Of a stretch of DNA of 64,000 nucleotides, positions 44,162 through 64,000 are shown one piece after another. The notes beneath the pieces were generated by a model that worked only from the letters and a program-made list of their open reading frames with translations, had not been told where the DNA came from and made no database searches. Numbering within the stretch: position 1 is the stretch's first letter; each line of letters opens with the position of its first letter. Made by a program: the position numbers and the translations under genes. Source of the DNA: an uncultured Candidatus Saccharibacteria bacterium (lineage in GTDB: Bacteria > Patescibacteriota > Minisyncoccia > Phycocordibacterales > UBA9973); NCBI GenBank assembly GCA_964385945.1, contig CAYLQJ010000001.1, positions 8,034 to 72,033 of the forward strand, in the 5' to 3' direction.

Positions 44162-45754
44162 ATGGAAAAAGCAGTATTGTATGCAAGAGTAAGTTCAGAT
44201 ATACAACAAAAAGAGCGGTCAATTGATAGTCAAATCGCGGAACTTAAGAAACAAATTACCAGTACTGGTAACAAGCTTGTAATGGAGTATATTGATGACG
44301 GTTATAGTGGTGCCTTACTCGACCGACCTGCTATGAATCAACTTCGTGAGGATCTAAAAACGGATAAATTTCAAGTTATTTACATACTGAATACTGACCG
44401 TATCGCACGCGACGTTACTTATCAAAATATAATCGTTGGGGAAATTTTAAGATACAAGAAACAACTCATCATTAATGGAAAAGATTATATTCATAATCCA
44501 GAGAACAAATTTACACTTACAGTGTTAGGAGCCGTATCTGAACTTGAAAGAGCCAAACTAATTGAGCGTACGACTCGTGGTAGACAACATAGACTCAAGC
44601 AAGGCCATCTAATGAGTAACGGATGGCAAACATATGCATATCGATATATTAAAAAATCAGCTACTGCTTTTCCTTCTTACGAGATCATTAGAGAAGAAGC
44701 TGATGTGGTCAAGTATATCTTCGAGACGTATGCAAATGGAAAAATTGGTATACAGTCAATAGCTATTCAACTTGAAGCAATGGGAGTCCCTAAAATCAAA
44801 GGGAGAAATTGTCTTAATCAATCTCAACTGAAAGCCATCCTAAAGAACGAGATGTATACAGGAATCAGATATTTCAACACAATGAAAACTGTGAAGATTG
44901 GCGACCCAATGAAGAAGCAGGTCAAAAGAAAAGAATATACAAATAGAGCCGAGTGGATAGGAATTAAAGTGCCAACAATTATCTCGAAGGAATTATATGA
45001 CAAAGTGCAGATAAAACTTGCATATAATTATTCCAACTGGAGGAACTCAAAACGAGTCCAACTTCTCTCAAATCTGGTCTGTTGTGGGAAATGTGATTCA
45101 AAATGTTTTTCATATAAACGACCTAGAGAAAAATTTGCATACAAGTGCAACAATAGAAAAATTGGGGTTCATAACCCAGAAATTAATGTCAAACAGCTTG
45201 AATCTACTGTATGGGAAATGATTGAGGAGATTATACTTGATCCCAAAAAACTCTATTCTTCGATAGAAATATTAAAGAGAAGAAGTCGAACAAATCATGG
45301 ACGAATCGAAATTAAAATAAAGGATATTGAAAAACAGATATCTGATTTATCAAACCAGAAAAAAAGAATCATAGACTTGTATGCATCTGGAAGTCTCGAA
45401 AAGGATGAATCGGCAACCAGAATAAATAATTACGACAAGAGTATTAAAAAAATAAAATCCGAGAAAATCGAGCTATTAAAATACCTTCCCCTCTTTGAAA
45501 AGTCTGACCTCATTCAAGAAAACGTCAGAACTTACTGCGAAAAGGTGCGTGCAAGATTTAATAAGTGTGCTGATTTTGAAACACAAAGACAGTTTCTTAT
45601 GGATTACATAAGCAAAGTGACTTTCTACAGAAAAGGTAAAAAATATAGCAGGATAAGAATATATGGATCAGTACCGATCAGCTACATAAATAATGAAGAT
45701 GTCATTCCTGTCGGGTTTAAATTTGAGAAAGTCTTAACCGAATCAAAACTATGA
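44162..45754 (+). CDS. large serine recombinase (resolvase catalytic domain + recombinase domain + zinc ribbon)
   Basis: AVLYARVSSDIQQKERSIDSQ catalytic Ser, DRIARD, recombinase domain, CCGKCDSKC...YKCNNRK ribbon, coiled-coil tail. Confidence 0.9.
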   Translation: MEKAVLYARVSSDIQQKERSIDSQIAELKKQITSTGNKLVMEYIDDGYSGALLDRPAMNQLREDLKTDKFQVIYILNTDRIARDVTYQNIIVGEILRYKKQLIINGKDYIHNPENKFTLTVLGAVSELERAKLIERTTRGRQHRLKQGHLMSNGWQTYAYRYIKKSATAFPSYEIIREEADVVKYIFETYANGKIGIQSIAIQLEAMGVPKIKGRNCLNQSQLKAILKNEMYTGIRYFNTMKTVKIGDPMKKQVKRKEYTNRAEWIGIKVPTIISKELYDKVQIKLAYNYSNWRNSKRVQLLSNLVCCGKCDSKCFSYKRPREKFAYKCNNRKIGVHNPEINVKQLESTVWEMIEEIILDPKKLYSSIEILKRRSRTNHGRIEIKIKDIEKQISDLSNQKKRIIDLYASGSLEKDESATRINNYDKSIKKIKSEKIELLKYLPLFEKSDLIQENVRTYCEKVRARFNKCADFETQRQFLMDYISKVTFYRKGKKYSRIRIYGSVPISYINNEDVIPVGFKFEKVLTESKL

Positions 45755-47447: not shown

Positions 47448-47978
47448 TTAAAACTGGATTCCAGAAATTAAATAGTTTAGTAAATCTCTTGTATCTGAAT
47501 CGTTGATTTGTACTTCTTTGTTTTTGTACCAAGAACAAAGTTCTTTATTGGAATTAATGAAAAAATCTTTAATTTCTATTGTTTTAACTTTAGCACTTGA
47601 GTCTTCCGATATTTGTAATAAATATTCTGTGTTTACTTTTTTAACGTAAAAGATATTATTATTCTTGAAATAGTAACTAACTTCTGATTTTCCTGTTTCA
47701 CCAAAAAAGATTTGTTTGATAAAAACAATTTTTCCATCTAGTGTGTAATTTGTTTGTTCCCCTCCCTCAGTAGACTGTCCAAATATATCTTTCGTAGTAA
47801 ATGCATAATTTTTTGTATTTTTTTCAATATTCTCAGCTATGCTATAACTATCTGTTACAGGACTATTGTCACACGAAGTAGATAAATTTTTTGGTGTTAA
47901 ATTATAATGTCTGTACATTGGATAGCCAGAAATAATAACGATTAGCAATATAGTTAATGATATTGTAAGTTTTTTCAT
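47448..47978 (-). CDS. putative secreted/lipoprotein immunity-like protein downstream of RHS toxin
   Basis: 176 aa with signal peptide; second gene after the RHS C-terminal domain. Confidence 0.4.
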   Translation of the reverse strand: MKKLTISLTILLIVIISGYPMYRHYNLTPKNLSTSCDNSPVTDSYSIAENIEKNTKNYAFTTKDIFGQSTEGGEQTNYTLDGKIVFIKQIFFGETGKSEVSYYFKNNNIFYVKKVNTEYLLQISEDSSAKVKTIEIKDFFINSNKELCSWYKNKEVQINDSDTRDLLNYLISGIQF

Positions 47979-48090: not shown

Positions 48091-48462
48091 TTATTTCTTT
48101 ATTTGAAAACTTGTTAACTCTGGCTCCCATGGTCCATTACATGATTTATGTGTTAATTTTAGATCCTTGTTAAATATAAAAGCAACTCCGGTATTACTGA
48201 CCCATTTTTCGCTTACATATGGTACAGATAAATGAATTTCTTCATTATTAATACGAACTGTAGGATAGTATTTATTTAATTTTTCTGAAACCACTACAAA
48301 ATCATCAGAAATATTTATAGTATTACAGACTTCAATTAAATCAAGACTTTTTCCTTTGTTCAATTTAAAATTTATATTTTCTTGATGCAAATTAAGAATT
48401 ACAGCCAAAAGAATATTTTCGATAATAAGTATCACTACAAATAACATTATATAATTTTTCAT
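48091..48462 (-). CDS. putative immunity protein of RHS toxin
   Basis: 123 aa, N-terminal TM helix, start 1 nt after the RHS stop. Confidence 0.4.
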   Translation of the reverse strand: MKNYIMLFVVILIIENILLAVILNLHQENINFKLNKGKSLDLIEVCNTINISDDFVVVSEKLNKYYPTVRINNEEIHLSVPYVSEKWVSNTGVAFIFNKDLKLTHKSCNGPWEPELTSFQIKK

Positions 48463-48463: not shown

Positions 48464-51400
48464 TTAATTTCCTTTTATTTTATTAATAATTGTTCTAACT
48501 CCATTGGAAACCGCTTGAGTTGCCCTATTTATTGCACCACCAACTTGTCGCCCAGTTTCTCGAGAGCCATAATTACTTACAGCCGATAAATTTGCAGCTC
48601 CCATTGTACCATTTGCTTTAACATAATTACTTGGAATTGCTTGTCCGTAACCTGGATCAATGCCTGGAGCATTACCATTCCATGGCAAGTTTTCAACTCC
48701 TGCCCCACGAAGAAGTGTTGTCGCAAAATTATTTGAATTATATCCGTTATTTACAAATGGATCATATGCTGCATCTTCATTATACGCATTATATTGGTTA
48801 GTAATATTTTTAATAAATTCTGTATCAGAAACACCTGATGGCATTTGAACCTGAACAGTCGATTTCATTTTACCTTTCTGCTGATCTGGCATAGAATACC
48901 CGTTTTGAACCACAGAAACGTCACTAGGCGCATTTCTACCTTTAATTAGGTTGCCATTATCACCAGCATAACCTCCGAGCGTCCAAGCATCTCCAGATTT
49001 CATACCGAAATCTCCCGGATTATTGGGTGCTATCAAAAGAAAAACATGAGTTCCTGCACTATTATTTTCTATTTCTTTTGAAACCGCATATACACTTCTT
49101 CCCGTTGGGTCACTTAGTGTAATAGGATTATTCCTTGCATATGCATATGAGTTTTGATTTTGTGGGTCGAGCAACCAATCTAGTGAAGTAACCCAAAACT
49201 CAGGATCCTGGCTTATAAACTGACCTCTAGCCCCGTTGTAGTAACGGGCGTTAAGATAAGATAATTGTGTGTCTTCGTCATACTCCTGTCCTATATACTG
49301 CTTAGCATTTGTAAATGATCCTGAAGAAATTCTTTGGTCTCCATAAGGGAAGTAATCTAACAATTCAACTTGTGCCCCTGTGTCATCTGTTACTACATTT
49401 GTACCTCCAAGGTGATCAGTGTGAACATAATACGGGCTTACGACAGTGCTTATTGTTTCAATTGTTGAAACAAGAGCATCCCCAGCATAAATACTTTTTG
49501 TTTCTTTTCCTGACGGGTCCACATTGTATAGCTTGTTCGCATAATAAGTATTATCACTATCATTCTTTGCTCTAACTCTTTGTCCCTCATGGTCATACCA
49601 GTATTCCAGCACATCAACACCATTATCTGATTCTATCAATTGTTGTTTATAATTCCAAGTGTTTGCAAGAGTTTCATCATCTAAGAGGTTTCCATCTTTG
49701 TCGTAAGTGTAGGTAATCTCTCCTGATGGTGCATGCACCACAACGGTGCGTATTTTACCTGGAGCTGAGTTACCAATAGAATCTTCGACATTATAAATAA
49801 GCTGATATGTACCTGCGATTGCAGTATTAACTGTTCCAGTTACATCAACATCACCAGTAATAGTTCCGTCTTCAGTGTCAGCTGCTGAATATCCTGGCTC
49901 GGTCCATGTATCATTAACATCTAAATCAATTAGATCAGAACCAGTAAGTGTGATGACAGGATTGTCATTTGGAGGAGGTACAGAAGAAGCTACTACAGTA
50001 AATGTACCACTACTAGTAAATTTATGAATTGTATATGCTCCAGATGTACTTACTGTACCACCAGTAGATGTATTAGAAACACCATCACTACCATCAGTTT
50101 TATAAGTAACTATAACTATACCTGAACCACCATTTTGACTACCACTATAACCATTACCACCTCCACCACCACCTGTATTAGAGGTTCCAGACTCACCAGA
50201 ATAACTTCCATCACCTCCACCACAAGTGCCATCTCCTGGACTACCACCATTTCTAACTCCACCTCCACCACCTGCATAACATACACTTGTTCCACTTATA
50301 TCAGTAGTAAAACCTGGACCACCATTAGATGCAGGGGCACTCGATCCTCCTGTTTGCCCTGCTCCTGTTGCACCTCCTCCACCTCCAGAATTTAACCAAG
50401 AGCCTCCTCCAGCATAACCTTGTCCACTTGTTCCACTACCTCCTGAACCATCTGCTGAACCACCTCCACCAGAACCTCCAGAATTTCCATGTTTACTTCC
50501 TGCTGACAAAGAACCGCCTCTACCTCCCCCAACAGCTGTCAAACTACTGAAAACAGAATTTCCCCCATTAGACCAACTATTACCACCACTTCCAACAGTT
50601 ATTGAATAAGCCTGAGCTGTTACAGAATGAGAAGTATGATAAAGCACACCACCTGCTCCACCTCCACCACTATAGTACATAGATGCTTGTCCACCCGAAC
50701 CTCCTCCAGCAACTACTAATGCTTTTACAGATAGAGAAGGTGGAACATATGGGTCATGAACTACAATAGTACGTATTTTACCAGGTGCAGGGGCATCTGC
50801 TGAGTCTTCAACGTTATAAATCAATTGATACACTCCAGAGACAGCAGTATTGACCGATCCTGTTACTGTTACATCACTAGTGATTGTCCCATCTTCAAAG
50901 TCAGATGCAGAATATCCTGGTTCTGTCCATGTGTCATTCACATTTAAATCAATTAAACTACTTCCAGACAGAGTAATTGTTGGATTGTTGTTGGATACTA
51001 CATCATTAATAAATGTAATAGCATGTGGATTAGCATAATTTGATCCTGTTGAGCCAGCATATGTATATGACCCCAAAGGACTTGATGTTATATTTCCAAT
51101 AGCATCATAAAAATAAGATTGAATATAAGTAGATTGACCACCAGCAACACTTGTAGCAGTTGCTGAGGTCATACGATTTAAATCGTCGTAAACATACGCA
51201 ACTGTTTTTGAAGCATCAGTATTAGAATTATCTATAATTTGAGTAATGTTTCCATTTTCATCGTAGGTATAAGCAATATCTTGGAAAATAGTGGTGGATG
51301 GAATAGAATATGTGACTTCAAGTTTTGGATCGGAAGAAGTGCCTGAATATTCTCCAGCTCTAATAATAAGGTAATTGTTTTGACCAGAAGTTCCAGTAAA

Positions 51401-54400
51401 TGGACTGTCTATAACATCGTGACCTTCACGTAACCCCAATTTAGTAAAACCAGTTTTGTTTACCCACCCTTTACCAGTAGTATTTAAATTAAATGTAAGA
51501 TATGCGCTGGTGGAAACACTAGTAATATCTTTCCTTTCTCCAGTGTCGACACCTTCTGTAGGATTATTTATACTTCCAGCAAGATCAAAATCTGAATTTG
51601 CAAGTGCTGTATTACTTGGTTGCGACGTTTGAACCACTGTTACCCAATCATCTCCGTCGTTATCATTATTAAGTTTAGAATTAATATATGTTTTTAGTTT
51701 TGCATCAGAAATTACTGCATCATCAGGCAAAGAGGAAGTATCAAAAGGTAGAAAAGCTCTACGAATTCGATAACTTGTAGCACTTGCTTTTCCATTACCA
51801 GTATAAAATGTAGTACCGGTATAGCTTGAAACAACTCCCGACGTGGCGTCGTGTCCAGTATCCCAATTTGTATTGTCATTATATACATATCCATCACCCG
51901 CAGCAGGATAAAAAGTAACAGTTGTTGGTGTCCCGCCACTATAATATGAAGTATATTTTCGAGTTAATCTGTATATTTTAGTTTCATCATATGTATTTGT
52001 AGTGTTAGTTCCGTTAGAATTCATCTGATAAGTTATTTTTCCATGCGGTCCATAATCAAAATCAGAAACTACATCAGTATATGAGCCACCATTTTCTTTT
52101 CTCTCAACTTTCTCTAATTGCCCAGCAGTATTATAGGTGTATTTAATTTGAGCACTATCAGGATAAGTGATAACTAATTTGTTCCCAAGACGATCGTATG
52201 TGTGGGAGGTGGTGTACGCATTGCTGTTAATTGTCTTTACCTCACTTACAGTGTTGCCATTTGAATCATAGGTATAATCAGTATCCGCTCCAGCGAGCAT
52301 ATCCACCGCACAAACCTTCCCTATTCCGTTCATGCAAGAATCATATGTGTAAGTAATTTCGGTTCCGCTTCCGACTGTTTCATTTTCGGTAAGCACACGA
52401 TTTATATCATCATAAGTATAGTTCACTGTTTTTGCTTCAGGACTTACTGACTGAATCATATTACTTGCATCATCATATGTGTATGACCAAGAACCAAACG
52501 TAGCATCTCCCGAAGCATGCAAATCTTCAGCGGTTAATCTTCTTCCTAAACCATCATATGTAAAGTTACGGAAGTTGCTTAGAGCATCCGTTATCTTAGT
52601 AAGTTTTTTGTTTAGATTCCATTCGTAGTTCGTGATGTATGTGGACCCGCTATTTACTTCCTCTACTTTGATTAGGTTGTCGTGCGCATCTTTATAATAG
52701 TTCTTCACTTTGCTTCGTGGGTCAGTAGTAGTAGTCTTCCAGTCGTCATAGGTATAGTTTGTAGTACCTACTGCATCTACGACAGTAGAATATCGTTGCA
52801 TTGGATCATAGGTATATGTTTTGTATAGTGCTGTCGTACTAGTAGCTGTAGTTCTAGAAGTCCCGGAAGAATCATAAGGTAAGGATTCTTTTTGAAGTAA
52901 GCCAACATTGTTATACAGATAATCCCGAGCAACATAACTTGATTCACTTTCAGTTCTATCTTGAATCTTTCTATTAAGTCCATCAAGATATGTGTAGCTG
53001 TCCACACTATTTGAACCATCTAGGTTATCTGTCTTCTGTACTGCAACTGCACCAGAGGTATCTGTATATGTATATGCTGTTTTTGTAACTGCAGAATACG
53101 GAGAACCGAAATCAGGAACTTTTTCAGTAAGTACTCTGTCTAGTCCGTCATAGGTTCGTTGGTACACAAAACCATTCGGTTCAGTTACCTGTTTAATATT
53201 TCCTGAAGCATAATCATAGGTGTAATCGGTATCATTTGAAAGCGGATCGGTAACGGTTGCTGGATACAAATAATTTGCATCGTAGGTGTATGAAGTAACT
53301 TTTCCTCGCTCATCGGTGGAAGAAGTAGGAATACCATACGTAGTGTTGTAACCTTTCTGAGTATTTACATAGGTACTACTCACTTTCCATTTTTCAACTT
53401 TAGTTGGATTACCATCAGTTACAGTGCCTAAAGACTGAGCATCATAATATGTTTTGGTTTCTCGAACCTTGGCAGCACTTTGATCTACGACGGTGTCCTG
53501 ATATGGAAGACCTACAATCCAGTCAGTAGTGTTTGCGGTGTAAGTAATTGTCTCTACCGTCTTATCTGTCCCTGTGTCTGTGTAAGATCCGTCATCGCTT
53601 CCCGTGACTTCACCCCACATTGTTTTAGTAGTGATATTTCCATAGGTATCATCATATGTATATTCAGTAGTGGTATCTTTATGATCACTATCGCCGTCGT
53701 ACGACAGAACTGTTGAACGAACTAACTTCACAAAATCTCTTCCTGTTCCTTGATTATATTTATCCCACTTGTTTACGGTTTTTTGATAAATATTGTTGGA
53801 AGTATCTGCTATTTCCGTTCTGTAGATTTTTCCTGCTTTAGAAATATGATCGCTGTATTCTCCCTGTGAAGAATTTGTAGAGTTTCCTTGGTGGAAATAA
53901 TTAGTGGTTTTTGTAGTACCATCATCTTCTATGATTTTTCCGAAACCAGTGATTTTACGATCAAGATGAGTGTTAAAGTAATAGTCGCCTTCCTGGTAGC
54001 TGTACGTTTTGGTAATAGTTGGGTTACTGAAACCGCTTGTTGTCGCTATTTGATAGACCGTATCTAGAACAGCAGGCAGATGAGGATTTAAGGTTGCTCC
54101 ACCACTTGCATACTTAGGTGAACTTTTGTACGTGACTGTGGAAACTCCACCAAATCTGTTCATGATTGTAGAAAGTAAATCTGCTTTTATTCTTTGGTTT
54201 TTAGAAAGAGTTGCTGAGCTCTGAGCACTATCATAAAAATCAAGCATCCCATCACCATCAAAATCAGTTAGACGTGTTACGGGATTAGTAGTTAAGGGTA
54301 TTCCAGCCAAAGGAAATTGCGAATTTGTTGTAAATTGCCACCCTGGGCTCTTATTCAAATATGCACCATTTGTGCTTGTTGACCCAGACAAAATATCTAT

Positions 54401-56449
54401 TAGTCCATCACCGTTTATATCTCCAAAAAGTGTGCCGGTACTTGTAGACAATGAGCCATTATCAGAAACCCCAAAAACAATAGGAGGAGTATAACTTGTG
54501 TCTTCTGACCATGTTTTGTCTCCATTATTTTTGTATGCTATTTTTGTTTCAACATTTGAAGAATTTTTGTGTCCCTTCAAAATATCAACCAGTCCATCTC
54601 CGTTGTAATCCACTAATATAACACCTAGTCTCATATCAACAGGAAGAACCCATCCTGAGTCACTACTCCAACCATTACCAGTGTTTAAAGAAACTGTCGT
54701 CGTAATAGGAGCAGCTCCATTGTTATCCCCTAAAGCATTAATAAAATCAGGAAGTCCATCTCCGTTTATATCTACTAGACGAGTCCCTGTATCATTTGTG
54801 TTCCCAAGGAAAGAACCAGCGGGAGCCCAATTGGAGTCAAGATACCAAGAGGTTCCTTGGTTAATGTACGTGCGAGACACCTGACCACCTCCTGTGTTAC
54901 CACTTTGAACAATGTCAGCCCTTCCGTCACCGTTAACGTCAGCTGCACGGATTCCTTCTTCCATCATATGCCCACCTGGAGCACAAGGACAAGAAAAGGG
55001 AGTAGGAGCATTAAGTGCAGATGTGTAGGTCCAACTTCCGTCACCATCATTTAGATACGTACCTTTTGTCCAGACACCAGCGCTTTCTGTTGATTCCATC
55101 AGGTCAGGAAGAGCATCTCCATTCAAATCAGCAACAATAGCACCGAAGTTAGCAGCAGTATTGATGCTAGCGGAAACAGCAGTACTCCAAGCAAAGTCAG
55201 TCACAAACTCTGACCCCGTACCAGTTGCTTGATAAGTAAAAGCCACCGCTGGTAAGGTCGTCACATTCGACGATTCATCCTGCCCAGATTCTGTAATAGT
55301 ATTCAAAAGAGAACGCTGAGTATTGTCTCCCGTAGTGTACGCAAGCACATATTTATGTCTCCATGTACCACTTACCTTTGATTGAATATCAGTAATTTTA
55401 TAATTTGTGGTAACTCCAAACCCATATTTATTTTGAGTAATTGCATCACTTCTACTGGAACGAGTGAAAACAACACTAAAAATACCGTCTGTTGTGTTGT
55501 TTCCTGTATATGTAATTGTGTCAGGATAAACTTGTCCAGCATCTTTGTAGTACGAATATTCAATATAATTATCATTTGTGTCACGAATTTCTTCAAGCAT
55601 CCATCGTCCAACATTTGAAGAATTACCAGTATCATCTTCTCTTGAATTTGAAGTAAGTCCAAATTTATATACTGTTCCCTGCTTATCGGTCACGGTCCAA
55701 ACATTTGAAGACAGAGAATACTTTAAGAAATCTCCATTTTCAGTTTTTGGAGCATAGTCACCACCTGAAGTATTTACGAGTTCACCCGAAAGAGACGAAT
55801 TAAAATAGTTATCTGTGTACAACTTCTCAATTCCACTTTTATTTACTCTCTCAATGTATGGAATATTAACAGACCAGCCATAACCAAAAATAGATGCCTG
55901 ATCAGCATCTTGACTTGAGTATTTAAGAGAAACTTTTGGATTCAATCCATTTCTTCCTGGAGGAACAGTAAGTGGGTACTCGTATGTTAACCCCCCTGTT
56001 GATTGATCTGTTTGAGGTAAACTTAAATTAGTAGCATCACGAGTGTCTCCAAAGAAACCTCCGGAACTTTGAGACATCATCATCTGCGGTTCTTCTTCCT
56101 CGTTTACAGGAATCACCTCTTCTGCTGGTTCATCTGTAATCTCTGGAGTAATGACATCTTCCTTTACTGGGCCAGTATCTAATATATCTTTTATAGTTTC
56201 TTCATTTGATTCTATGGGATTATTTACTGGTTCACCTAACACTTGTTCGATATCAGTTGAAGTATCTAAAATAACAGGATCATTGATTTCTGCACTTAAA
56301 GAAGGTTGCTCAATTTGAGTTGTTTCTGTTTGGATTACATCCACCGCCTCTTGGGCAAAAACCTGAGCTACAGGAGAAACAAAAAGAGAGATTATTAAAA
56401 GAGAACTAAAAACTTTTTGTAGAAACCGAACAGGAGCAGATGATTTCAT
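48464..56449 (-). CDS. secreted polymorphic toxin: SpvB/TcB-like N-domain + FG-GAP/VCBS beta-propeller + RHS/YD repeats + 2x DUF5011 Ig-like domains flanking a Gly-rich tract + RHS core + variable C-terminal toxin domain
   Basis: Signal peptide; SpvB-like region (GGLTYEYPL...); DINGDGLPD/DVNGDGRAD/DYNGDGLVD FG-GAP repeats; many YD repeats (YTYD.., RYxYD); duplicated ITL(S/T)GS.LIDL.VNDTWTEPGYSA.D.EDGTIT...; core end ...YYNGARGQFISQDPEF...ARNNPITLSDPTGRS (DPxG) at ~49101-49111, then a 211-aa C-terminal domain. Confidence 0.85.
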   Translation of the reverse strand: MKSSAPVRFLQKVFSSLLIISLFVSPVAQVFAQEAVDVIQTETTQIEQPSLSAEINDPVILDTSTDIEQVLGEPVNNPIESNEETIKDILDTGPVKEDVITPEITDEPAEEVIPVNEEEEPQMMMSQSSGGFFGDTRDATNLSLPQTDQSTGGLTYEYPLTVPPGRNGLNPKVSLKYSSQDADQASIFGYGWSVNIPYIERVNKSGIEKLYTDNYFNSSLSGELVNTSGGDYAPKTENGDFLKYSLSSNVWTVTDKQGTVYKFGLTSNSREDDTGNSSNVGRWMLEEIRDTNDNYIEYSYYKDAGQVYPDTITYTGNNTTDGIFSVVFTRSSRSDAITQNKYGFGVTTNYKITDIQSKVSGTWRHKYVLAYTTGDNTQRSLLNTITESGQDESSNVTTLPAVAFTYQATGTGSEFVTDFAWSTAVSASINTAANFGAIVADLNGDALPDLMESTESAGVWTKGTYLNDGDGSWTYTSALNAPTPFSCPCAPGGHMMEEGIRAADVNGDGRADIVQSGNTGGGQVSRTYINQGTSWYLDSNWAPAGSFLGNTNDTGTRLVDINGDGLPDFINALGDNNGAAPITTTVSLNTGNGWSSDSGWVLPVDMRLGVILVDYNGDGLVDILKGHKNSSNVETKIAYKNNGDKTWSEDTSYTPPIVFGVSDNGSLSTSTGTLFGDINGDGLIDILSGSTSTNGAYLNKSPGWQFTTNSQFPLAGIPLTTNPVTRLTDFDGDGMLDFYDSAQSSATLSKNQRIKADLLSTIMNRFGGVSTVTYKSSPKYASGGATLNPHLPAVLDTVYQIATTSGFSNPTITKTYSYQEGDYYFNTHLDRKITGFGKIIEDDGTTKTTNYFHQGNSTNSSQGEYSDHISKAGKIYRTEIADTSNNIYQKTVNKWDKYNQGTGRDFVKLVRSTVLSYDGDSDHKDTTTEYTYDDTYGNITTKTMWGEVTGSDDGSYTDTGTDKTVETITYTANTTDWIVGLPYQDTVVDQSAAKVRETKTYYDAQSLGTVTDGNPTKVEKWKVSSTYVNTQKGYNTTYGIPTSSTDERGKVTSYTYDANYLYPATVTDPLSNDTDYTYDYASGNIKQVTEPNGFVYQRTYDGLDRVLTEKVPDFGSPYSAVTKTAYTYTDTSGAVAVQKTDNLDGSNSVDSYTYLDGLNRKIQDRTESESSYVARDYLYNNVGLLQKESLPYDSSGTSRTTATSTTALYKTYTYDPMQRYSTVVDAVGTTNYTYDDWKTTTTDPRSKVKNYYKDAHDNLIKVEEVNSGSTYITNYEWNLNKKLTKITDALSNFRNFTYDGLGRRLTAEDLHASGDATFGSWSYTYDDASNMIQSVSPEAKTVNYTYDDINRVLTENETVGSGTEITYTYDSCMNGIGKVCAVDMLAGADTDYTYDSNGNTVSEVKTINSNAYTTSHTYDRLGNKLVITYPDSAQIKYTYNTAGQLEKVERKENGGSYTDVVSDFDYGPHGKITYQMNSNGTNTTNTYDETKIYRLTRKYTSYYSGGTPTTVTFYPAAGDGYVYNDNTNWDTGHDATSGVVSSYTGTTFYTGNGKASATSYRIRRAFLPFDTSSLPDDAVISDAKLKTYINSKLNNDNDGDDWVTVVQTSQPSNTALANSDFDLAGSINNPTEGVDTGERKDITSVSTSAYLTFNLNTTGKGWVNKTGFTKLGLREGHDVIDSPFTGTSGQNNYLIIRAGEYSGTSSDPKLEVTYSIPSTTIFQDIAYTYDENGNITQIIDNSNTDASKTVAYVYDDLNRMTSATATSVAGGQSTYIQSYFYDAIGNITSSPLGSYTYAGSTGSNYANPHAITFINDVVSNNNPTITLSGSSLIDLNVNDTWTEPGYSASDFEDGTITSDVTVTGSVNTAVSGVYQLIYNVEDSADAPAPGKIRTIVVHDPYVPPSLSVKALVVAGGGSGGQASMYYSGGGGAGGVLYHTSHSVTAQAYSITVGSGGNSWSNGGNSVFSSLTAVGGGRGGSLSAGSKHGNSGGSGGGGSADGSGGSGTSGQGYAGGGSWLNSGGGGGATGAGQTGGSSAPASNGGPGFTTDISGTSVCYAGGGGGVRNGGSPGDGTCGGGDGSYSGESGTSNTGGGGGGNGYSGSQNGGSGIVIVTYKTDGSDGVSNTSTGGTVSTSGAYTIHKFTSSGTFTVVASSVPPPNDNPVITLTGSDLIDLDVNDTWTEPGYSAADTEDGTITGDVDVTGTVNTAIAGTYQLIYNVEDSIGNSAPGKIRTVVVHAPSGEITYTYDKDGNLLDDETLANTWNYKQQLIESDNGVDVLEYWYDHEGQRVRAKNDSDNTYYANKLYNVDPSGKETKSIYAGDALVSTIETISTVVSPYYVHTDHLGGTNVVTDDTGAQVELLDYFPYGDQRISSGSFTNAKQYIGQEYDEDTQLSYLNARYYNGARGQFISQDPEFWVTSLDWLLDPQNQNSYAYARNNPITLSDPTGRSVYAVSKEIENNSAGTHVFLLIAPNNPGDFGMKSGDAWTLGGYAGDNGNLIKGRNAPSDVSVVQNGYSMPDQQKGKMKSTVQVQMPSGVSDTEFIKNITNQYNAYNEDAAYDPFVNNGYNSNNFATTLLRGAGVENLPWNGNAPGIDPGYGQAIPSNYVKANGTMGAANLSAVSNYGSRETGRQVGGAINRATQAVSNGVRTIINKIKGN
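49738..50998 (-). repeat. internal tandem duplication of a DUF5011-like Ig domain (49738-49985 and 50752-50998) flanking a Gly/Ser-rich low-complexity tract
   Basis: The two ~82-aa segments are ~75% identical at protein level. The intervening DNA is full of CCACCTCCACC-type direct repeats. Confidence 0.7.
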
Positions 56450-57854: not shown

Positions 57855-58268
57855 CCTCTGTACGAAAACCCTCCTAAAATTAGCCTTAATTTACAAGGGT
57901 TCAAAATAGGCTCCTCGCATCTAAATTTAAAAAAGGATGTGAGAGGCAGCTTAAGACAAAAATTAACAATCAATTAAACAAAAAAATGAAAAAACAAAAC
58001 AAAAGAGATAACAAATTAATAGAACTAGAAGAGGAATTTTGGGATGCAGAAATTCCAGAGAAAGACGAAGACGGTATTGATATTAACAAACCCTAAAACA
58101 AATTAAAAAGTAGTCGCTTTTAAAAATTACTAATTAACCAAATCATGATTGACTTAGAAGAATTCAAAAAGATATTAGGAGATAAAAATGGATTATCTGA
58201 AGAAGATATCATTAAACTCAAAGAAAATCAGGAAAATATGGCTGAAATATTTTTTAATTCTTGGCTAA

Positions 58269-59988
58269 GTGAAAATGATATATAATGTAAGTATTAAGAT
58301 GAAAAATAACGAAAAAACTAAAAACTGTATAATCTACTGTCGCGTAAGTTCCTCCAAACAAGCACAACAAGGCGAAAGTCTAGAACTACAAGAAAAAATA
58401 TGTACTGAGATTGCTCAGAAGACTGGATTAAAGGTTATCCATGTTTTTAAAGAGTCATTTTCTGGAAGAAAAGAAGAAAGACCACTGATAGACGAGGCCT
58501 TTGCTTACATAAAAGCAAACCCAAAAAAAATAGACGTATTCATAATACGTGCGATAGACAGATTCACCAGAGGTGGCACGCTTGGATATGAAAGCTTAGT
58601 TAAATTCTTAAGAACGCATGGAGTTACCCTAATAGACAGTTGCGGAATCATACAGCCTGCTCAAAACACATTAGGTCATTTGGACATTGAGTACGACTGG
58701 AGTATTACTCGTCCAAGTGAAATAACTGAACTTGTCATGGCCCAACAAGGCAAACATGAAGTCACTCAAATACTAACCAGAACAATAGGAGCAGAAATAG
58801 CCTTGGTTAGAGATGGCTACCATATTGGACCTCCAAGAGAAGGTTATATTAATGCAAAACTTTCACTTGAATGAAAGAAAAAAGCCCATCCAAGTTCCAG
58901 ACCCAACCTCTGCTCCATTTTTTGTCAAAATGTTTGAATTAAGAGGCGCTGGAGCCCACACAGACCAGGAAATAGTAGATCAGATAAATGCCATGGGTTA
59001 CAAATCTAAAACGAGACATAAGTGGTCGACAGGCAAAGAAAGAGTCGTTGGCACAACAGGTGGAATAAAGTTAACTATCCAACATTTACAGAGCATCATA
59101 TCCAACCCTATCTATTGTGGAGTTAATAACGGGGTATGGAACATAAAACCCATTAAAACAAAATATCCTGGTCTAGTAACCATTGAAGCCTTTAATAGAG
59201 CAAATAAAGGTAAAAAATTTATAGAAGAAAAACTAGATGGCAGTATTACCATCCACAAAGACTACAATCCTCATAGTTTAAAGAGAACAAAAGACAACCT
59301 ACAGTTCCCTTTCAAATCTGTAGTTCTTTGCCCCGAATGCAATAAACCATTTTTAGGTAGTTTCTCCAAAGGTAAGTCTGGAGCAAAATTCCCTTTTTAT
59401 CACTGTTCTAGAAAACATAAGTATTTGGGGGTAAATAAAAACAAACTAGAAGTAGGACTCGCTTACTTTCTAAATAACCTAAAATATGAAACAAGATTTA
59501 TCGAAAGTTTCGAGTTCATGCTCACGGACAAGTACAAAGAGAAGAAAAAAGAACTAGGTGACTTTTCCAGCAAAGTTACAATAAATATCGAAGAATTAGA
59601 AATAGAAAAAATAAATAAAATTGACGCTTTTACAAGCACTCAAAATGCAATAATACGAAAAGAGATAGAGAAGCAAATCGAAAAACTAGAGAAACAAATA
59701 GCAGATGCTAGAACTGAAATAAGTAAAATAAACGTAACCGAACATGATATAAAGTCATTCATTAAATACACAAAATATTTAATGGAACACCCTGAAAAAA
59801 TGCTTATAAAGCAAAAGAATCTTACTATTTTAAAAGCTCTTTTTGGGTTAGTTTTTGATGAACTACCAACCTATACAGAAATAGTTAATGGAACACCTAA
59901 ATTATCTTTAGCCTACAAGCTATCTAACGAGTTTAAGGATGATAAATCCTTCGCTGCGGACTTGATGTTTGGATTTCAGAACTTTTGA
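58269..59988 (+). pseudogene. large serine recombinase disrupted by a +1 frame change near 58860-58880
   Basis: Frame 1 gives the catalytic domain (IIYCRVSSSKQ...GYHIGPPREGYINAKLSLE*). Frame +1 continues with the recombinase domain and zinc ribbon (CPECNKPF...YHCSRKHK) and coiled-coil, ending ...ADLMFGFQNF* inside core repeat A. Confidence 0.7.
59955..59984. repeat. core repeat copy A (TGCGGACTTGATGTTTGGATTTCAGAACTT) inside the 3' end of the recombinase gene; right flank type R1 to ~60020
   Basis: Core + 35-bp right flank nearly identical to 62971-63037. Confidence 0.8.
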
Positions 59989-60097
59989 AAAGTCGTGATT
60001 TAGTCAGAATTAGTATTAATAATATTTAAATAAAAATAATAAAAGGCTGAACGTTTTCACGAACAGCCTAAATAAATTCTATACTATTTTATAGTTA

Positions 60098-60559
60098 TTA
60101 CTCTTTACCGTTACGAGGTTCGAGTAGTATGTTTGGTACATTCACCTCACCAGTATATACTTTTGTATTACTTTTAGGGCTTTTTGAGAAAAGTTCTAAT
60201 GTCAATACAGGATGTCCACTTCCACTTACACCTCCCATAATTCTAAAACCAGTCCAATTAATTTTTTTATCTACATTAGTAATTTCAATTAAAAAATTAA
60301 ATAACTTTTCAGTCTTTGTTTGACGAATAATACCTTCAATATCAAAATATCCTGGCCCTTGACCTAAGTGTTCTTTAAAACAAAAATACGCATGATCAGA
60401 ATATGTTTGAAGATTATCTACGCCAATAAGTAGATCATCTTCAGCGTAAGTATCTGGAAAATTATATTGAACTAAAAACATATAACGTGCTTTACTAAAT
60501 GCTCCAAGTTGTAAAGGTCTATAAGGTTCAGCAGGATAAACCTTGAGTAAGTTTGCCAT
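60098..60559 (-). CDS. hypothetical protein (array gene 1)
   Basis: 153-aa ORF between core copies A and B. Confidence 0.4.
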   Translation of the reverse strand: MANLLKVYPAEPYRPLQLGAFSKARYMFLVQYNFPDTYAEDDLLIGVDNLQTYSDHAYFCFKEHLGQGPGYFDIEGIIRQTKTEKLFNFLIEITNVDKKINWTGFRIMGGVSGSGHPVLTLELFSKSPKSNTKVYTGEVNVPNILLEPRNGKE

Positions 60560-60703
60560 TTTTTATATTTTAAAAAATTAAAAAATTTGTCTAAGGACAA
60601 TATCAAATAATCTATACCATATTTTTACAAAAAAAGCAAATTCTTTAACAGAGTAATTCTCATAGAGAAAACAACCAAGTTCACAACATTCACAATGTTC
60701 ACG

Positions 60704-60762
60704 AGCGGGCTTGAGGTGTGGACCCAGTCACTCGAGAGTAACGGGTTAAAATTTCAGAACTT
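60704..60762. repeat. core repeat copy B, split by a 29-bp insertion (CCCAGTCACTCGAGAGTAACGGGTTAAAA)
   Basis: AGCGGGCTTGAGGTGTGGA ... TTTCAGAACTT. Preceded by three tandem heptamers TTCACAA / TTCACAA / TTCACGA at 60680-60703. Confidence 0.7.
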
Positions 60763-60787
60763 ATAAATAACCATGAATTAGTAAAAT

Positions 60788-61216
60788 TTACCCTTCATTT
60801 TGAAATTCTGAAAAAGTAATTCCTTTTAAGTAATCATTAATAGCAGACCTGACAGAAGGCACCATATTTTCTGGTAATTCCTTAAGTGGAACCCATCTCA
60901 ACTCATCACACTTCTCTGGTTCTTTATTCTCTGGTTCTATGCCCTTATATTCGGATACAAAAAAGAAGTCAATATATTGAGACATTCTGTGCATCGTATG
61001 AACCAGCTTAATATCTTCTGGTTTTAGTAATAAACCAATCTCCTCTTCTACTTCTCTTGATAACCCTTGTGAGATTGTTTCATTTGGGTCCAAATGTCCA
61101 GCAGGCAAACTATAGTTACCATCTTGCCAACCAGTATTACACCTTCGGGATAAAAGTATCTTATCTTCTTTTATTAAAAATAAATAAACAGCAACTTTGA
61201 GTTTTAATCTTTCCAT
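60788..61216 (-). CDS. NUDIX hydrolase (array gene 2)
   Basis: Nudix box GHLDPNETISQGLSREVEEEIGL. Extended -10 TGGTATAAT only 7 nt upstream of the ATG, so near-leaderless. Confidence 0.75.
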   Translation of the reverse strand: MERLKLKVAVYLFLIKEDKILLSRRCNTGWQDGNYSLPAGHLDPNETISQGLSREVEEEIGLLLKPEDIKLVHTMHRMSQYIDFFFVSEYKGIEPENKEPEKCDELRWVPLKELPENMVPSVRSAINDYLKGITFSEFQNEG

Positions 61217-61294
61217 AATTTGTATTATACCAAAAGTTCGGAATTACACTACGGTATACAAACTTAGACCCATAAATATATAGGTTTTATGATG

Positions 61295-61323
61295 TGCGGG
61301 CTTGAGGTTTGGATTTCAGAACT
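61295..61323. repeat. core repeat copy C; right flank type R2 (TTAATTAAATTAAGTATT)
   Basis: TGCGGGCTTGAGGTTTGGATTTCAGAACT. Confidence 0.8.
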
Positions 61324-61386
61324 AATAAAGAGCTATACTTTAATTAAATTAAGTATTCAAAACCTTACAATAAACGAATAAACCCG

Positions 61387-61764
61387 TCACGATCGTGGCG
61401 GGTTTTTATGTAAATTTGGTAAAATAATAAATTTAACAAGGAAAATCATAGCTACTATCCCGATTGCATACATTATTAAACTATCAGGAATAATTATACC
61501 GAAAAAAAATTCTACATAATGAGAAATAAATCCAGTATCATATTGACTTAAGTTTGCCTGACTCTTGAGATAATTTTCAAGAATCATTAACGGACACCTT
61601 CCTTCTGTTGCAAGATAGTACCACTGAATAATAAACATAGGGATTGCAGGTATAATATACCATTTAGCTTCTTTGACTTTTTTTGTAGGAATAAGCAAAA
61701 CAGATAAAAAATATACAGTGACAGCACCATGCAATAGTGCTACAAGGTTTGCTAACGTATTCAT
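61387..61764 (-). CDS. small membrane protein, possibly DUF2784-like (array gene 3)
   Basis: 125 aa, 3 TM helices, GRCPLMILE motif. Confidence 0.45.
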   Translation of the reverse strand: MNTLANLVALLHGAVTVYFLSVLLIPTKKVKEAKWYIIPAIPMFIIQWYYLATEGRCPLMILENYLKSQANLSQYDTGFISHYVEFFFGIIIPDSLIMYAIGIVAMIFLVKFIILPNLHKNPPRS

Positions 61765-61796
61765 TATTTTTATTATTTAATTGTTTAAAAAAAAAT

Positions 61797-61997
61797 TATT
61801 AAGTTCTTTTAATCCCCACAAAGAAACTAAGAGAACCTAACAAAATTTAATAATTAAATACAATATCAAAGAACCCTACTATTTCAAATAGAATAACATA
61901 TTTTAGTATTTTGTCAACTGCGGGCTTGAGGTTTGGATTTCAGAACTTATAAAAAACCACACATTAATTAAATTAAGTATTAAAAATATTAAAACTA
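61797..61997. repeat. core repeat copy D with full left module L1 (61797-61918), core (61919-61948) and R2 flank
   Basis: Left module is ~85% identical to 63784-63905. On the gene strand the core abuts TTGACA-N16-TGTTATTCT. Confidence 0.8.
61885..61918 (-). promoter_or_regulatory. candidate sigma70-type promoter inside repeat module L1 (-35 TTGACA, extended -10 TGTTATTCT)
   Basis: Reverse complement of 61885-61918 reads TTGACAAAATACTAAAATATGTTATTCT; a TATTTCAAATA palindrome lies just downstream. Confidence 0.4.
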
Positions 61998-62070
61998 GCT
62001 AAAATAAAAAGTCTCTACTCCATAAAGAAGTAAAGACTATTTAAAAAATTAGTGAATTCAGAGAACAGAA

Positions 62071-62646
62071 TTATGATTTTTGTATTCCTACAAGATAAAA
62101 ATCTCCATACCAACAAGTAAAATCTTTACCTAAGAAGGACATATTAAATAAATTATCTGACAGGTACAATCCTGGTATTACTTGTGTATTTGGTTTGTGC
62201 GGCATATTGTACGGAGGTATTTCATCTGCGTCAATCCCCCCAAAAGGTGTTCCAAATTTATCTGTAATCTTATTTGCCATCCGAACAAAGAAGGTTGGTG
62301 ACAGCAACCATCCATCAATATCAATTTCCTCTCGTTTGTTCCTTTCAAATAAAGAGTAAAGCACAGGTAATCCTCCATAATCTAGACCGTTTTCTGATAA
62401 GAATTTTCTACAATCCGAGACCTCTATTTCCTTAGGGTTGTTTACTTTAAAAATTGAAGCTATTTTTCTTTCTGAAACTAGCTGCATTTCATTTTGGTCA
62501 CAGTTTAACACATTAAAGTAATACCACAAAAACGAAAAACTTCTTTTTTTGGAAACATCACGCTCCCATTGATCGTCTACAATTGCTTTCGGGTTAATTT
62601 CCGTTAAAGGAAAAATTTCAATTTTTTTTATCAATTCAAATTCCAT
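62071..62646 (-). CDS. hypothetical protein (array gene 4)
   Basis: About 190-aa ORF; likely start MEFELIKK. Confidence 0.4.
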   Translation of the reverse strand: MEFELIKKIEIFPLTEINPKAIVDDQWERDVSKKRSFSFLWYYFNVLNCDQNEMQLVSERKIASIFKVNNPKEIEVSDCRKFLSENGLDYGGLPVLYSLFERNKREEIDIDGWLLSPTFFVRMANKITDKFGTPFGGIDADEIPPYNMPHKPNTQVIPGLYLSDNLFNMSFLGKDFTCWYGDFYLVGIQKS

Positions 62647-62671
62647 TTTATATGTATTATTTTTTTGCAAT

Positions 62672-63037
62672 ATTGCTCTCTAAAAACCATAAAATGACTT
62701 CCAGGAAGCAATATACAAAATAACACAATCAAAATATCAAAGAACTCTAATATTTCAAGTAGAATAACATATTTTAGGATTTTGTCAACTGCGGGCGATG
62801 AGAGAATCAGTCAGGAATAATTTTGTTTTCGTCAAAACAAAATTTTCACGACCCTGGCTCACTTCTTTTTTGTGCTCAAAAAATATAGTTCCGCCTTTCG
62901 ATTCCTCACACAGGCAAAGTAGTTTGCCTGCTATCGCCCAACAAAAAAACAGCTTATCCTGTTCTTTTTTTGCGGACTTGATGTTTGGATTTCAGAACTT
63001 TTAAGGAGTCGTGCTTTGGTTGAGGTTAGTGTGAAAG
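62672..63037. repeat. core repeat copy E: L1-like left module + half core TGCGGGC (62790-62796), 174-bp insertion (62797-62970), then TGCGGAC-core remainder and R1 flank (62971-63037)
   Basis: The insertion is bracketed by TGCGGGC / TGCGGAC. The right part is a near copy of A (59955-60020). Confidence 0.75.
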
Positions 63038-63176
63038 ACTTAAGTCCCCTATCAAGTTCACAATATGCGTAATTTCACGGAAATGTTTTAAATTATTAAG
63101 ATTTTTCAAAAGGTGACATCTCAGAAATAATAAAAAAGAAAACCCACTACTGCAGATTTTCTTGCAATAGCGGGTA

Positions 63177-63752
63177 TTATTTTTGTTTCAAACAAAAAAT
63201 GAAAATATCTCCTCTGTGCCAAAATTGGTGTTTGTCATTTATATACCAACTCAGTTTTGTAATATCCGTGGTATTCCCGACTGCTCTATTACCTCTACTG
63301 AGAAATAAACTCAGACCAAAATGATTATTATCTATCTTAACTGATTCTCTGGTAACAAATAAATTACGTTGTATAAGTGCACCTTCATTTAATCTTTGAT
63401 AACCAAGTGTTGCATGTGCGGCGATTTCATACGGACATTCACTGACGATATACTTTATACCATCCAGCTCTACAACCGAACCAAGTGCTTTATTAACGAT
63501 AGTTTGATAATTTATGTATTTATTATCATCTTTTATGTTAAGCAAGCCTATGGAAGTTGTAATGAGTATGAGTTCATTTTGTACTGGATGCGTAATAAAA
63601 CTTCTGTTCTTAATCATAGGAATAGTATCCTCAGTTACAAGATCTTTATTAATAAGTTGATTAAGTATTTCTTCCTTACTTATTCCTCCATAAACACATT
63701 TTCCCAGAACTCTAAATTCTGAGTCGTTGTTAAATGACTTTATTGTTTTCAT
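63177..63752 (-). CDS. hypothetical protein (array gene 5)
   Basis: 191-aa ORF preceded on its strand by the conserved L1 module. Confidence 0.4.
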   Translation of the reverse strand: MKTIKSFNNDSEFRVLGKCVYGGISKEEILNQLINKDLVTEDTIPMIKNRSFITHPVQNELILITTSIGLLNIKDDNKYINYQTIVNKALGSVVELDGIKYIVSECPYEIAAHATLGYQRLNEGALIQRNLFVTRESVKIDNNHFGLSLFLSRGNRAVGNTTDITKLSWYINDKHQFWHRGDIFIFCLKQK

Positions 63753-63783
63753 TTTTTATATTTTAAATTGTTATAAATTATTT

Positions 63784-63935
63784 ATTAAGTTCTCTTAAAT
63801 CCCATAAAGAAACTAAGAGAACCTAACAAAATCTAACAATCAAATCCCATATAAAGAACCCTACTATTTCAAATAGAATAACATATTTTAGGATTTTGTC
63901 AATTGCGGGCTTGATGTTTGGATTTCAGAACTTTT
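63784..63935. repeat. core repeat copy F with full L1 module (core 63906-63935, TGCGGGCTTGATGTTTGGATTTCAGAACTT)
   Basis: Near-identical to D; the array probably continues beyond the window. Confidence 0.8.
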
Positions 63936-64000
63936 AAAAAATGACTCTTTGATTAAATCAAATATTATCAATTTTAAAAAATAAAAAAGGTAACTTATAA

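Follow-up and report, generated by a model that had tools for sequence, protein, structure and literature searches.

A direct-repeat array of one-gene units beside a large serine recombinase pseudogene, probably anchored at a tRNA-Trp gene, in a Patescibacteria genome

We analysed a stretch of 64,000 nucleotides (hereafter the window; contig CAYLQJ010000001.1 of GenBank assembly GCA_964385945.1) from an uncultured Candidatus Saccharibacteria bacterium, a member of the candidate phyla radiation (CPR, or Patescibacteria). The subject of this work is its last part, in which a large serine recombinase (LSR) gene runs into an array of small genes punctuated by a short repeat. An earlier description of the same letters, made without database searches (the sequence-only reading), had listed six copies of a 30-bp core, and had proposed that they belong to a recombinase-driven cassette system analogous to integrons or, alternatively, to a promoter-carrying miniature inverted-repeat transposable element (MITE). 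We interpret the region between 58.1 and 64.0 kb as the distal part of an island anchored at tRNA-Trp. Its features are listed in Table 1; loci from other assemblies are cited by handle (L001 and so on).

A scan of the window with the pattern TGCGGRCTTGAKGTTTGGATTTCAGAACTT (+ strand, at most one mismatch) recovered five intact 30-bp cores, at sites A, C, D, E and F, for a chance expectation of 0 (no match in 100 shuffles), and no core in the remaining ~60 kb. A sixth core, at site B, is interrupted by a 29-nt GC-rich hairpin insert (60723-60751), and the same split variant is found in L005 at 6492. The count of six therefore stands for five intact cores and a split one; the last of them starts at 63904 and not at 63906, and the supposed copy at 62790 is only a 7-nt stub, TGCGGGC, followed by a look-alike of the tRNA-Trp 3′ end and a structured element of ~170 nt (element X, see below). 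All cores lie in the same, direct orientation. Each interval between them holds one small minus-strand gene, and the genes are mutually unrelated, just as had been described: a 153-aa protein, a NUDIX hydrolase of 142 aa, a DUF2784 protein of 125 aa, and proteins of 191 (or 199) and 191 aa. The shuffling of sequences around the core is also borne out. Flanks are modular (repeat families D1-D5), with a left module, L1, preceding 61919, 62790 and 63904, a right flank of R1 type following 59955 and 62971, and another, R2, following 61295 and 61919.

The recombinase gene that leads into the array encodes a Resolvase domain (PF00239, E=1.1e-18 on 58269-58874) and a Recombinase domain (PF07508, E=8e-7, which passes the curated cut-off). 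The match to Zn_ribbon_recom is weak (20.0 bits vs a cut-off of 25.3), with CxxC...HC residues and a Lys/Glu-rich helical stretch visible. The N-terminal catalytic domain matches that of the TP901-1 integrase (E=4.7e-5), and solved structures match the catalytic domain only; overall, the protein is but a distant relation of characterised LSRs, with ~24% identity to phage integrases. An intact orthologue of 573 aa (P0001) shares 97% identity with it, and relative to this orthologue the window's gene carries a 1-nt insertion at ~58872 and two substitutions. In the independent assembly L016 the gene is likewise split into two open reading frames (ORFs). Recoding of TGA (code 25) was considered as an explanation for the interrupting stop and rejected, since the difference from L009 is an indel and a 2661-aa ORF of the window reads through with code 11. 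The claim that the first core is the last 30 nt of a frameshifted LSR ORF hence holds. Larger relatives of this recombinase sit among genes for relaxase, T4 coupling protein and ArdC, a mobile context. No relative of the recombinase was found in the plasmids searched. A short acidic ORF (46-52 aa) precedes every examined member of the family, and is a candidate accessory or directionality factor.

Table 1. Features of the array and of the surrounding region of the window, with occurrences of element X at other loci.
Feature	Position	Strand	Basis or remark
Conserved acidic 46-aa ORF directly upstream of the recombinase	58145..58285	+	46-52-aa counterparts in L009, L010, L011, L022, 48-100% identity
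LSR gene, pseudogene; last 10 codons = core	58299..59988	+	Pfam, orthologue alignment
Site A: recombinase arm - O (TGCGG) - P′ (ACTTGATGTTTGGATTTCAGAAC)	59955..59984	+	L009 homology ends 59959
Cassette 1 cargo, 153 aa (c153)	60098..60559	-	cassette spans 59960-60708
Site B: L3 arm - AGCGG - P′ split by hairpin insert	60704..60762	+	sequence, junction table
Cassette 2 cargo, NUDIX hydrolase, 142 aa	60788..61216	-	PF00293 E=9e-20; PADLOC candidate family PDC-S07 E=1.7e-11
L2 arm, promoter module of NUDIX cassette, extended -10 TGGTATAAT close to ATG	61217..61294	-	read from sequence
Site C: L2 - O - P′	61295..61324	+	pattern scan, junction table
Cassette 3 cargo, DUF2784 membrane protein, 125 aa	61387..61764	-	PF10861 E=1.2e-11
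L1 arm, TTGACA-16-TGTTATTCT promoter and ~110-nt conserved leader	61765..61918	-	repeat families D2, D4, D5; promoter scan
Site D: L1 - O - P′	61919..61948	+	pattern scan, junction table
Cassette 4 cargo, 191-aa ORFan (199 aa from upstream TTG)	62071..62646	-	ORF list
L1 arm, leader variant, same promoter as other L1 arms	62647..62789	-	repeat comparison, promoter scan
Element X: O + pseudo-B′ (TGCGGGCGATGAGAGAATC) + structured ~150 nt + tRNA-terminator-like arm B (...CTGTTCTTTTTT)	62790..62970	+	junction table
Site E: B arm - O - P′ (attL-like)	62971..63000	+	pattern scan, junction table
Cassette 5 cargo, 191 aa, intrinsic terminator 63142-63175	63177..63752	-	ORF list, terminator scan
L1 arm, promoter and leader	63753..63903	-	repeat comparison, promoter scan
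Site F: L1 - O - P′	63904..63933	+	pattern scan, junction table
Start of sixth cassette, runs off window	63934..64000	-	L013 ~340 bp further: 3′ part of another minus-strand gene
Element X elsewhere	L002 ~4805-4935, ~6434-6564; L003 ~4821-5003; L006 3805-3937; L007 ~11900-12067		
Gabija-like pair: OLD-family ATPase/TOPRIM protein and UvrD-like helicase	37267-39901	-	
LOOT RNA (RF03000)	43877-43997	-	84.6 bits
Two overlapping tandem LSR genes	44162-45754, 45751-47424	+	each Resolvase + Recombinase + Zn-ribbon
Small ORFs downstream of RHS toxin gene	48091-48462, 47448-47978		
2661-aa SpvB/FG-GAP/RHS-YD polymorphic toxin	48464-56449	-	

The first bases of the core, TGCGG(GC), are the antisense of the last acceptor bases, the discriminator and two trailer bases of tRNA-Trp. 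Since TGCGGGC is the antisense tRNA-Trp end at the junctions between arrays and the tRNA gene, we read the core as a crossover region, TGCGG (called O, within TGC[GG]GC), followed by a right arm, an attP-type half-site, and not as a stand-alone dyad. In this nomenclature the right arms are P′ (attP-type) and B′ (the tRNA body, attB-type), and the left arms are L1, L2, L3, the recombinase 3′ end (P) and B. P′ is accompanied by a conserved flank of ~35 nt. Other accounts of the core were tried and abandoned. Only its first 7 nt match tRNA-Trp and the remainder does not fold as a T-arm, so that the core is not a tRNA fragment. An alignment of 20 copies of the core and its flank gave no consensus fold on either strand (alifold energy ~0), as would be required of a structured RNA or an attC-like hairpin, and a covariation that core position 6 seemed to show with the flank was not sustained. 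Within 59.8-64 kb, Rfam 15 returned nothing at gathering score and hairpin matches only at chance level (E up to 10).

To locate the crossover, we tabulated all junctions across nine loci. Five left arms (L1, L2, L3, recombinase and B) are found joined to three right arms (P′, the true tRNA and a pseudo-B′), always breaking at O. The combinations seen are L1-P′, L2-P′, L3-P′, recombinase-P′, recombinase-tRNA, L1-tRNA, L1-pseudo-B′, L2-pseudo-B′, B-P′ and B-tRNA. Core position 1 (T, A or G) tracks the class of the left arm, while positions 6 (G or A) and 12 (G or T) track the right flank, and exchange therefore falls within core positions 2-5, that is, GCGG. The central TT of GTTTGGA-TT-TCAGAAC, around which the sequence-only reading had described a dyad, is ruled out as the crossover, since at tRNA, recombinase and cassette junctions alike the break falls inside TGCGG; nor is the core a complete symmetric site, as it consists of the crossover and a single half-site, P′. 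A crossover in the T-loop of the tRNA was also considered and discarded, as authentic tRNA sequence begins immediately after GCGGGC at the junctions.

The 3′ end of the recombinase gene gives a further view of this site. We found 787 homologues at E<1e-10 and inspected the ORF ends of the best 120, of which 114 could be anchored at a conserved GTPKL motif. In 95 of these 114 the ORF runs into antisense codons of the tRNA-Trp T-loop and acceptor (...AGDERIELPP..LPLN and similar; the B′ arm, with E at +28), and in 13 into a P′-type tail (...LEWNT......KWN.VF or ...DLGFDFWNKF, with WN at +30); the tails of the other 6 are shortened or unclassified. The window's own ORF continues into the cassette core (...DLMFGFQNF, with QN at +30). 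The coding end of the recombinase would thus itself be the left arm P of an attachment site, the ORF appearing to end inside its own site. This ties the end of the ORF to the site in more than 100 homologues, and upholds the linkage between recombinase and repeat that had been proposed. The length of the integrase tail differs by state, with ~30 aa when the native P′ is present, ~20 aa of antisense-tRNA codons when integrated and 9 aa at the cassette core. The hydrophobic positions of the P′-encoded tail are kept with different codons, which suggests that this tail is a real peptide. As a separate observation, a direct repeat, TTAATGGAACACC, lies twice in the 3′ coding region of the recombinase (59773-59791 and 59879-59897); it contains AATGGAACAC, also found in P′ arms of recombinase-type elements, and could represent extra binding sites embedded in the coding sequence.

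Both kinds of right arm contain the word GAAC, in two distinct registers. Counted from the O codon, the GAAC end falls at 22 nt in every tRNA-type tail (B′; the 95 homologues together with L009, L023, L003, L005 and L006), and at 27 nt in every non-tRNA tail (P′; the 13 homologues, in which the word reads GGAAC) and in all cassette cores. In serine integrases, the outer motif bound by the zinc-ribbon domain (ZD) lies 5 bp further out in attP than in attB half-sites, at positions 16-24 in attP and 11-19 in attB (PMC3783163). The same 5-bp shift is found here on the right arms. Applying this numbering, in which the motifs end at 24 and 19, the central dinucleotide would be GG, at core positions 4-5, and GG is invariant there in all sites but one (L005 7035).

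Comparison with relatives shows what the junction looks like with and without the array. L009 is 88.9% identical to the window over the RHS region (see below) and 97.7% over the recombinase. In this locus the recombinase is intact and fused directly to tRNA-Trp, as ...TCCTTCAC|TGCGG|GCGATGAGAGAATCGAAC. The alignment between both stops at 59959, the last base of TGCGG, which means that, relative to L009, a block of cassettes of at least 4 kb has been inserted in the window precisely at O. A complete element of 9.7 kb is present in L023, where it is bounded by direct repeats: one end reads (rpmG terminator)-GCGGGC-TTTAAAAGATTAGAATGGAAC at 1944, and the other recombinase 3′ end-GCGGGC-GATGGAGGAATCGAAC (tRNA-Trp) at 11657. 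This is the B-O-P′ ... P-O-B′ arrangement expected of an integrated element, and L023 serves as a positive control. Its cargo (2301-9273) includes SIR2_2, DUF87 (HerA-like) and a trypsin-like protease and is of defence type. L022 has a recombinase-O-P′ junction and, 9 kb downstream, an identical P′ with a different left arm; the intervening stretch is a tandem unit that lacks a recombinase. In the window itself, no copy of P′ was found upstream as a distal att site of the recombinase unit.

The exact 22-nt centre of the core was found in six CPR metagenome-assembled genomes, at one locus in each, and in two metagenome contigs, and in no viral contig. At these other loci the cores again form direct arrays, spaced by 0.55-1.4 kb. 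The arrays in L003, L005/L019 and L006 end at tRNA-Trp(CCA) downstream of rpmG, through junctions such as L1 promoter-TGCGGGC-GATGAGAGAATCGAAC. A recombinase-linked cassette array, as first suggested, is hence what the wider survey returns: a single locus per genome (n=6), adjacent to tRNA-Trp wherever the neighbourhood is visible. Variability of the cassettes, which the sequence-only reading had named as a check, was also observed, as cargo differs between the arrays of different genomes and the close relative L009 has no array at the same junction.

Furthermore, individual cassettes recur. The c153 cassette of the window is 86% identical at the nucleotide level to one in L005/L019, where it has different neighbours. 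A cassette encoding a short-chain dehydrogenase/reductase (SDR) is found in both L004 and L005, at 84% identity. The two copies align from O itself to a point past the -10, ~18 nt upstream of the ATG, and their promoter arms beyond it are different ones (L2 vs L3). Exchange at O is consequently not the sole process at work, and promoter arms are themselves interchangeable. Housekeeping genes common to the loci are 67-78% identical, below the cassettes, although the genome pairs compared are not the same ones; this gap is compatible with horizontal spread.

Taken together, we regard it as very probable that the array is the outcome of site-specific exchange at TGCGG next to tRNA-Trp, which should lie just beyond the end of the window. 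Our main proposal goes one step further, and we give it a probability of about 0.6: one-gene units, each able to insert by itself, are assembled into the array by this LSR family through serial insertion at tRNA-Trp. Each cassette would be a mini-element that begins with P′ and its ~35-nt flank, continues with a terminator and a single gene, and closes with a promoter arm (L1, L2 or L3) running up to O. A circular unit with the site L-O-P′ would recombine with the tRNA-proximal junction, (any left arm)-O-B′. This would regenerate a junction with an intact tRNA, whose discriminator and trailer bases are present at the end of every left arm; the next unit would be accepted there, and older units would be pushed outward. 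In the window, the recombinase-bearing unit would have come in first, a state still seen in L009, followed by at least six one-gene units between recombinase and tRNA, and the recombinase would afterwards have been inactivated by the frameshift. Stacking of this kind would explain why internal junctions are all L-O-P′, why the recombinase unit is the most distal one in the window and is tRNA-adjacent in L009, and why units without a recombinase persist.

Several observations weigh against this proposal. The window's recombinase is dead, and there is no recombinase within 10 kb of the L019 array nor in the 8-kb loci L001-L006. Canonical serine integrases recombine attP with attB only, and the model needs an attP-like site to recombine with an attR-like one, although the Ccr enzymes of the staphylococcal cassette chromosome (SCC) have been reported to tolerate this. 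When the junctions were inspected for an inverted GAAC-type motif in register, none was seen in L1, L2, B or the 3′ end of the recombinase; L3 alone has GTTCA close to where it would be expected. With no recognisable inverted copy of the P′ or B′ motifs, the left arms do not resemble half-sites, and the paired, related half-sites of a canonical LSR dimer site are not in evidence. Breakpoints also occur at the promoter/-10 boundary. The tRNA-Trp end of this array lies outside the window, and the records that match the array are contigs of 0.9-4.3 kb, none of which reaches the tRNA. Finally, element X (see below) is a further weak point of our account.

These observations leave room for other explanations. 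According to one of them, the units are static scars: larger LSR elements would have integrated in tandem at tRNA-Trp and been deleted down to one gene each, the units never having been mobile singly. L023 and L022 do contain larger units with the same architecture, of 9.7 and 9 kb respectively, and a dead recombinase, arrays without one nearby such as L019, and the identical gene order found in the independent assemblies L013, L014 and L016 would all fit this view. Random deletion, on the other hand, would not leave every unit ending at O with three reusable promoter arms, and it does not account for c153 and SDR units recurring in other genomes, bounded at O and with other neighbours, or for L1 being joined to at least six different genes. 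We consider this history unlikely.

It is rather improbable that the array was shuffled without any site-specific enzyme, by RecA-type homologous exchange between terminator-core-promoter repeats, in the manner of the PeSL modules of T4-type phages. The conserved blocks are long enough to make the idea attractive (~60 nt for core and flank, up to 150 nt for promoter and leader), and the second class of breakpoints, at the -10/leader boundary and not at O, speaks for it. Yet P′ and the tRNA body, which are exchanged for one another, have just the 7 nt TGCGGGC in common; variable bases to the left and to the right of positions 2-5 go with different arms; more than 100 homologues have their recombinase ORF fused at the same point; and the 5-bp rule for B′ and P′ would be meaningless under homologous exchange.

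We give little credence to the idea that another enzyme, a tyrosine integrase or Xer-type recombinase using TGCGGGC as a 7-nt overlap, moves the cassettes, with the LSR a mere passenger at a tRNA hot spot. The 3′ ends of tRNA genes are classic targets of tyrosine integrases, 7 nt is the overlap size of such recombinases, element X has the 16-19-nt tRNA 3′-end repeat typical of their elements, and some arrays have no neighbouring LSR. We found no tyrosine recombinase, however, either within or next to the window's array or in loci L001-L009. Depending on the arms, the 7-mer differs at positions 1 and 6, which would place heterology inside a tyrosine-recombinase overlap, and the P′ of the cassettes matches the P′ encoded by LSR ORFs in length and in GAAC register. 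As for the MITE alternative of the sequence-only reading, or a repeat of the repetitive extragenic palindromic (REP) kind, the repeat is indeed short, conserved and promoter-bearing, with GC-rich hairpin insertions inside its arms, but it occupies one locus per genome in six genomes, has no copy in the other 60 kb of the window, keeps a single orientation, and shows no terminal inverted repeats, target duplications or Rfam match, so that this explanation can practically be set aside.

Regarding the cassettes themselves, database families are silent for three of the five cargo proteins. No family match was found in Pfam, NCBIfam or PADLOC for the c153 protein, which has four relatives in 5.8 billion clusters and whose structure model is unusable (pLDDT 42.6), for the cassette 4 protein, which finds only itself among the 5.8 billion clusters, or for the cassette 5 protein, with three relatives among 1.84 billion representatives. 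The only distant relative of c153 (40% identity; L017 9697-10248) sits on a 20-kb contig with many small co-directional ORFs, PcfJ, DNA ligase and RNase H; this contig looks phage- or plasmid-like, which hints at a source of cassette cargo.

The promoter arms differ between cassettes. The sequence-only reading had a TTGACA promoter abutting each core; it is present at three junctions only, where the L1 promoters (TTGACA-16-TG-TATTCT, minus strand) are the top promoter-scan hits, while the NUDIX and 153-aa genes have other upstream arms, L2 and L3. No promoter was seen in the L3 arm of the 153-aa cassette. The L2 module also abuts O in L002, L004 and L006, and the SDR cassette of L004/L005 carries the TGGTATAAT extended -10 as well. 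A leader of ~110 nt within L1 (61765-61869, 62647-62732 and 63753-63855) is common to unrelated genes and comes in two variants, one with a clear hairpin; it has no Rfam match and is possibly a regulatory leader. GC-rich hairpin mini-insertions of 25-36 nt interrupt AT-rich arms and one core (window 60723-60751; L004 ~6420-6480; L005 ~5605-5645 and ~6440-6480), and two of them occupy the same position in different genomes with diverged stems.

Element X is ~130-180 nt long, with conserved closing stems (GGGCGAT/ATCGCCC and GAGAGAATC/GATTCCTC) and a variable interior. Its pseudo-B′ is the tRNA-Trp 3′-end look-alike, an antisense copy of 16-19 nt. In L003 and L006 it is the immediate neighbour of the true tRNA-Trp, whereas in the window, L002 and L007 it lies inside arrays; together with the adjoining L1 arm (62647-62789), the window's copy is 84% identical to L003 4817-5152. 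Possible identities are a mimic of attB, a small RNA derived from the tRNA, or what remains of an element of another type.

The array may belong to a larger structure. The synteny tRNA-Leu-aroA-miaA-VTT-Vut_1 ... tRNA-Trp-rpmG is common to the window (~32850-64000), L007 (11121 onward) and L019 (7843-16725), and the stretch before tRNA-Trp, which measures ~9 kb in L019, exceeds 31 kb in the window. There it holds the Gabija-like pair, the giant RHS toxin gene, two further LSR genes in tandem and a LOOT RNA, along with genes for a methylase and a terminase-like protein. The whole of 33-64+ kb may be one hypervariable island, of which the array is the tRNA-proximal part. The tandem LSRs are only ~20% identical to the array recombinase and lie beside terminase-like, helix-turn-helix and DNA methylase genes, which points to a second mobile element; the LOOT RNA is found between them and a bacterial PH-domain gene. 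The orthologue of the RHS toxin in L009 has a Tox-REase-7 tip, a similar giant gene is located near the recombinase in L011, and the small ORFs downstream of the toxin gene may be immunity genes.

Among known systems, this one appears to work most like SCC composite islands combined with the accretion of cis-mobilizable elements (CIMEs), with the unit size and ORFan content of integron cassettes, while being a member of neither. In SCC, an LSR (CcrAB or CcrC) integrates at the 3′ end of rlmH without destroying the gene, and the gene-proximal junction stays a target. SCC units are arranged in tandem, separated by direct repeats of the integration sequence, and stack at rlmH, many of them without a recombinase (pseudo-SCC). 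The likeness lies in LSR insertion at the 3′ end of a conserved housekeeping gene and in tandem units separated by direct repeats, some without a recombinase; we found at least six such units in the window, five in L019 and the 9-kb unit in L022. It is a likeness of function and not of membership: the target is tRNA-Trp instead of rlmH, the host is a CPR lineage, the array units are single genes of 0.6-1 kb with a promoter arm whereas SCC spans 10-60 kb, and the stop codon of the array recombinase lies inside the attachment site.

The integron analogy of the sequence-only reading stands as far as the one-gene array beside a recombinase goes, and gives way to SCC-type tandem accretion, anchored at tRNA-Trp, as the closest analogue. 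Like an integron (IntI, attI, attC), the array is unidirectional, mostly of one-gene units, rich in ORFans, placed beside a recombinase and different in content between relatives. Unlike it, the recombinase is a serine and not a tyrosine recombinase, and none of the ORFs next to the array has a Phage_integrase domain; the repeat lacks an attC fold, and the unit ends have no GTTRRRY/RYYYAAC pair, the crossover being at the repeat edge; and cassettes have their own promoters rather than Pc, in an array anchored on a tRNA gene. The tandem accretion of streptococcal integrative and conjugative or mobilizable elements (ICEs and IMEs) and the CIMEs offer another parallel, with recombinase-less att-flanked units beside a recombinase element at one att site. 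As with CIMEs, units could be mobilised in trans, and conjugation genes are present in larger relatives; CIMEs, however, are multi-kilobase remnants, mostly of tyrosine-integrase elements, and the units described here are minimal, numerous and equipped with standardised promoter arms. PeSL modules resemble the array in having a repeated terminator/promoter module between small, unrelated, exchanged genes. Their shuffling is described as driven by homology, and they are not known to have a dedicated recombinase or a tRNA anchor, whereas the breakpoints of the array are concentrated at a 4-nt point common to the recombinase ORF and the tRNA.

A bolder formulation, possible but tentative, is that CPR bacteria have a counterpart of the integron that relies on a serine integrase. 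Circles of one gene each, furnished with no more than a P′-type half-site and a standard promoter arm, would be captured singly at the tRNA-Trp junction, the right half-sites (P′ vs B′) would essentially suffice, with nearly any left arm tolerated, and each event would rewrite the C-terminal tail of the integrase. Such rewriting could couple the activity or directionality of the integrase to the state of the site. Our literature searches found no published description of the array system reported here.

CPR genomes are tiny, and how they acquire genes is little understood; this locus provides a defined capture point at tRNA-Trp that can be read from sequence, and with it a serine integrase family of its own (more than 780 homologues). 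The cargo of the family ranges from single ORFan genes to defence systems (SIR2 and DUF87 in L023, and the Gabija-like pair in the wider island). The more than 100 natural junctions constitute a data set for the rules of attB and attP recognition and for integrase engineering, and may include a case in which a serine integrase recombines sites that have just one conserved arm. Should single cassettes prove mobile, the array would be a second, mechanistically independent solution to the integron's problem of storing and expressing small genes.

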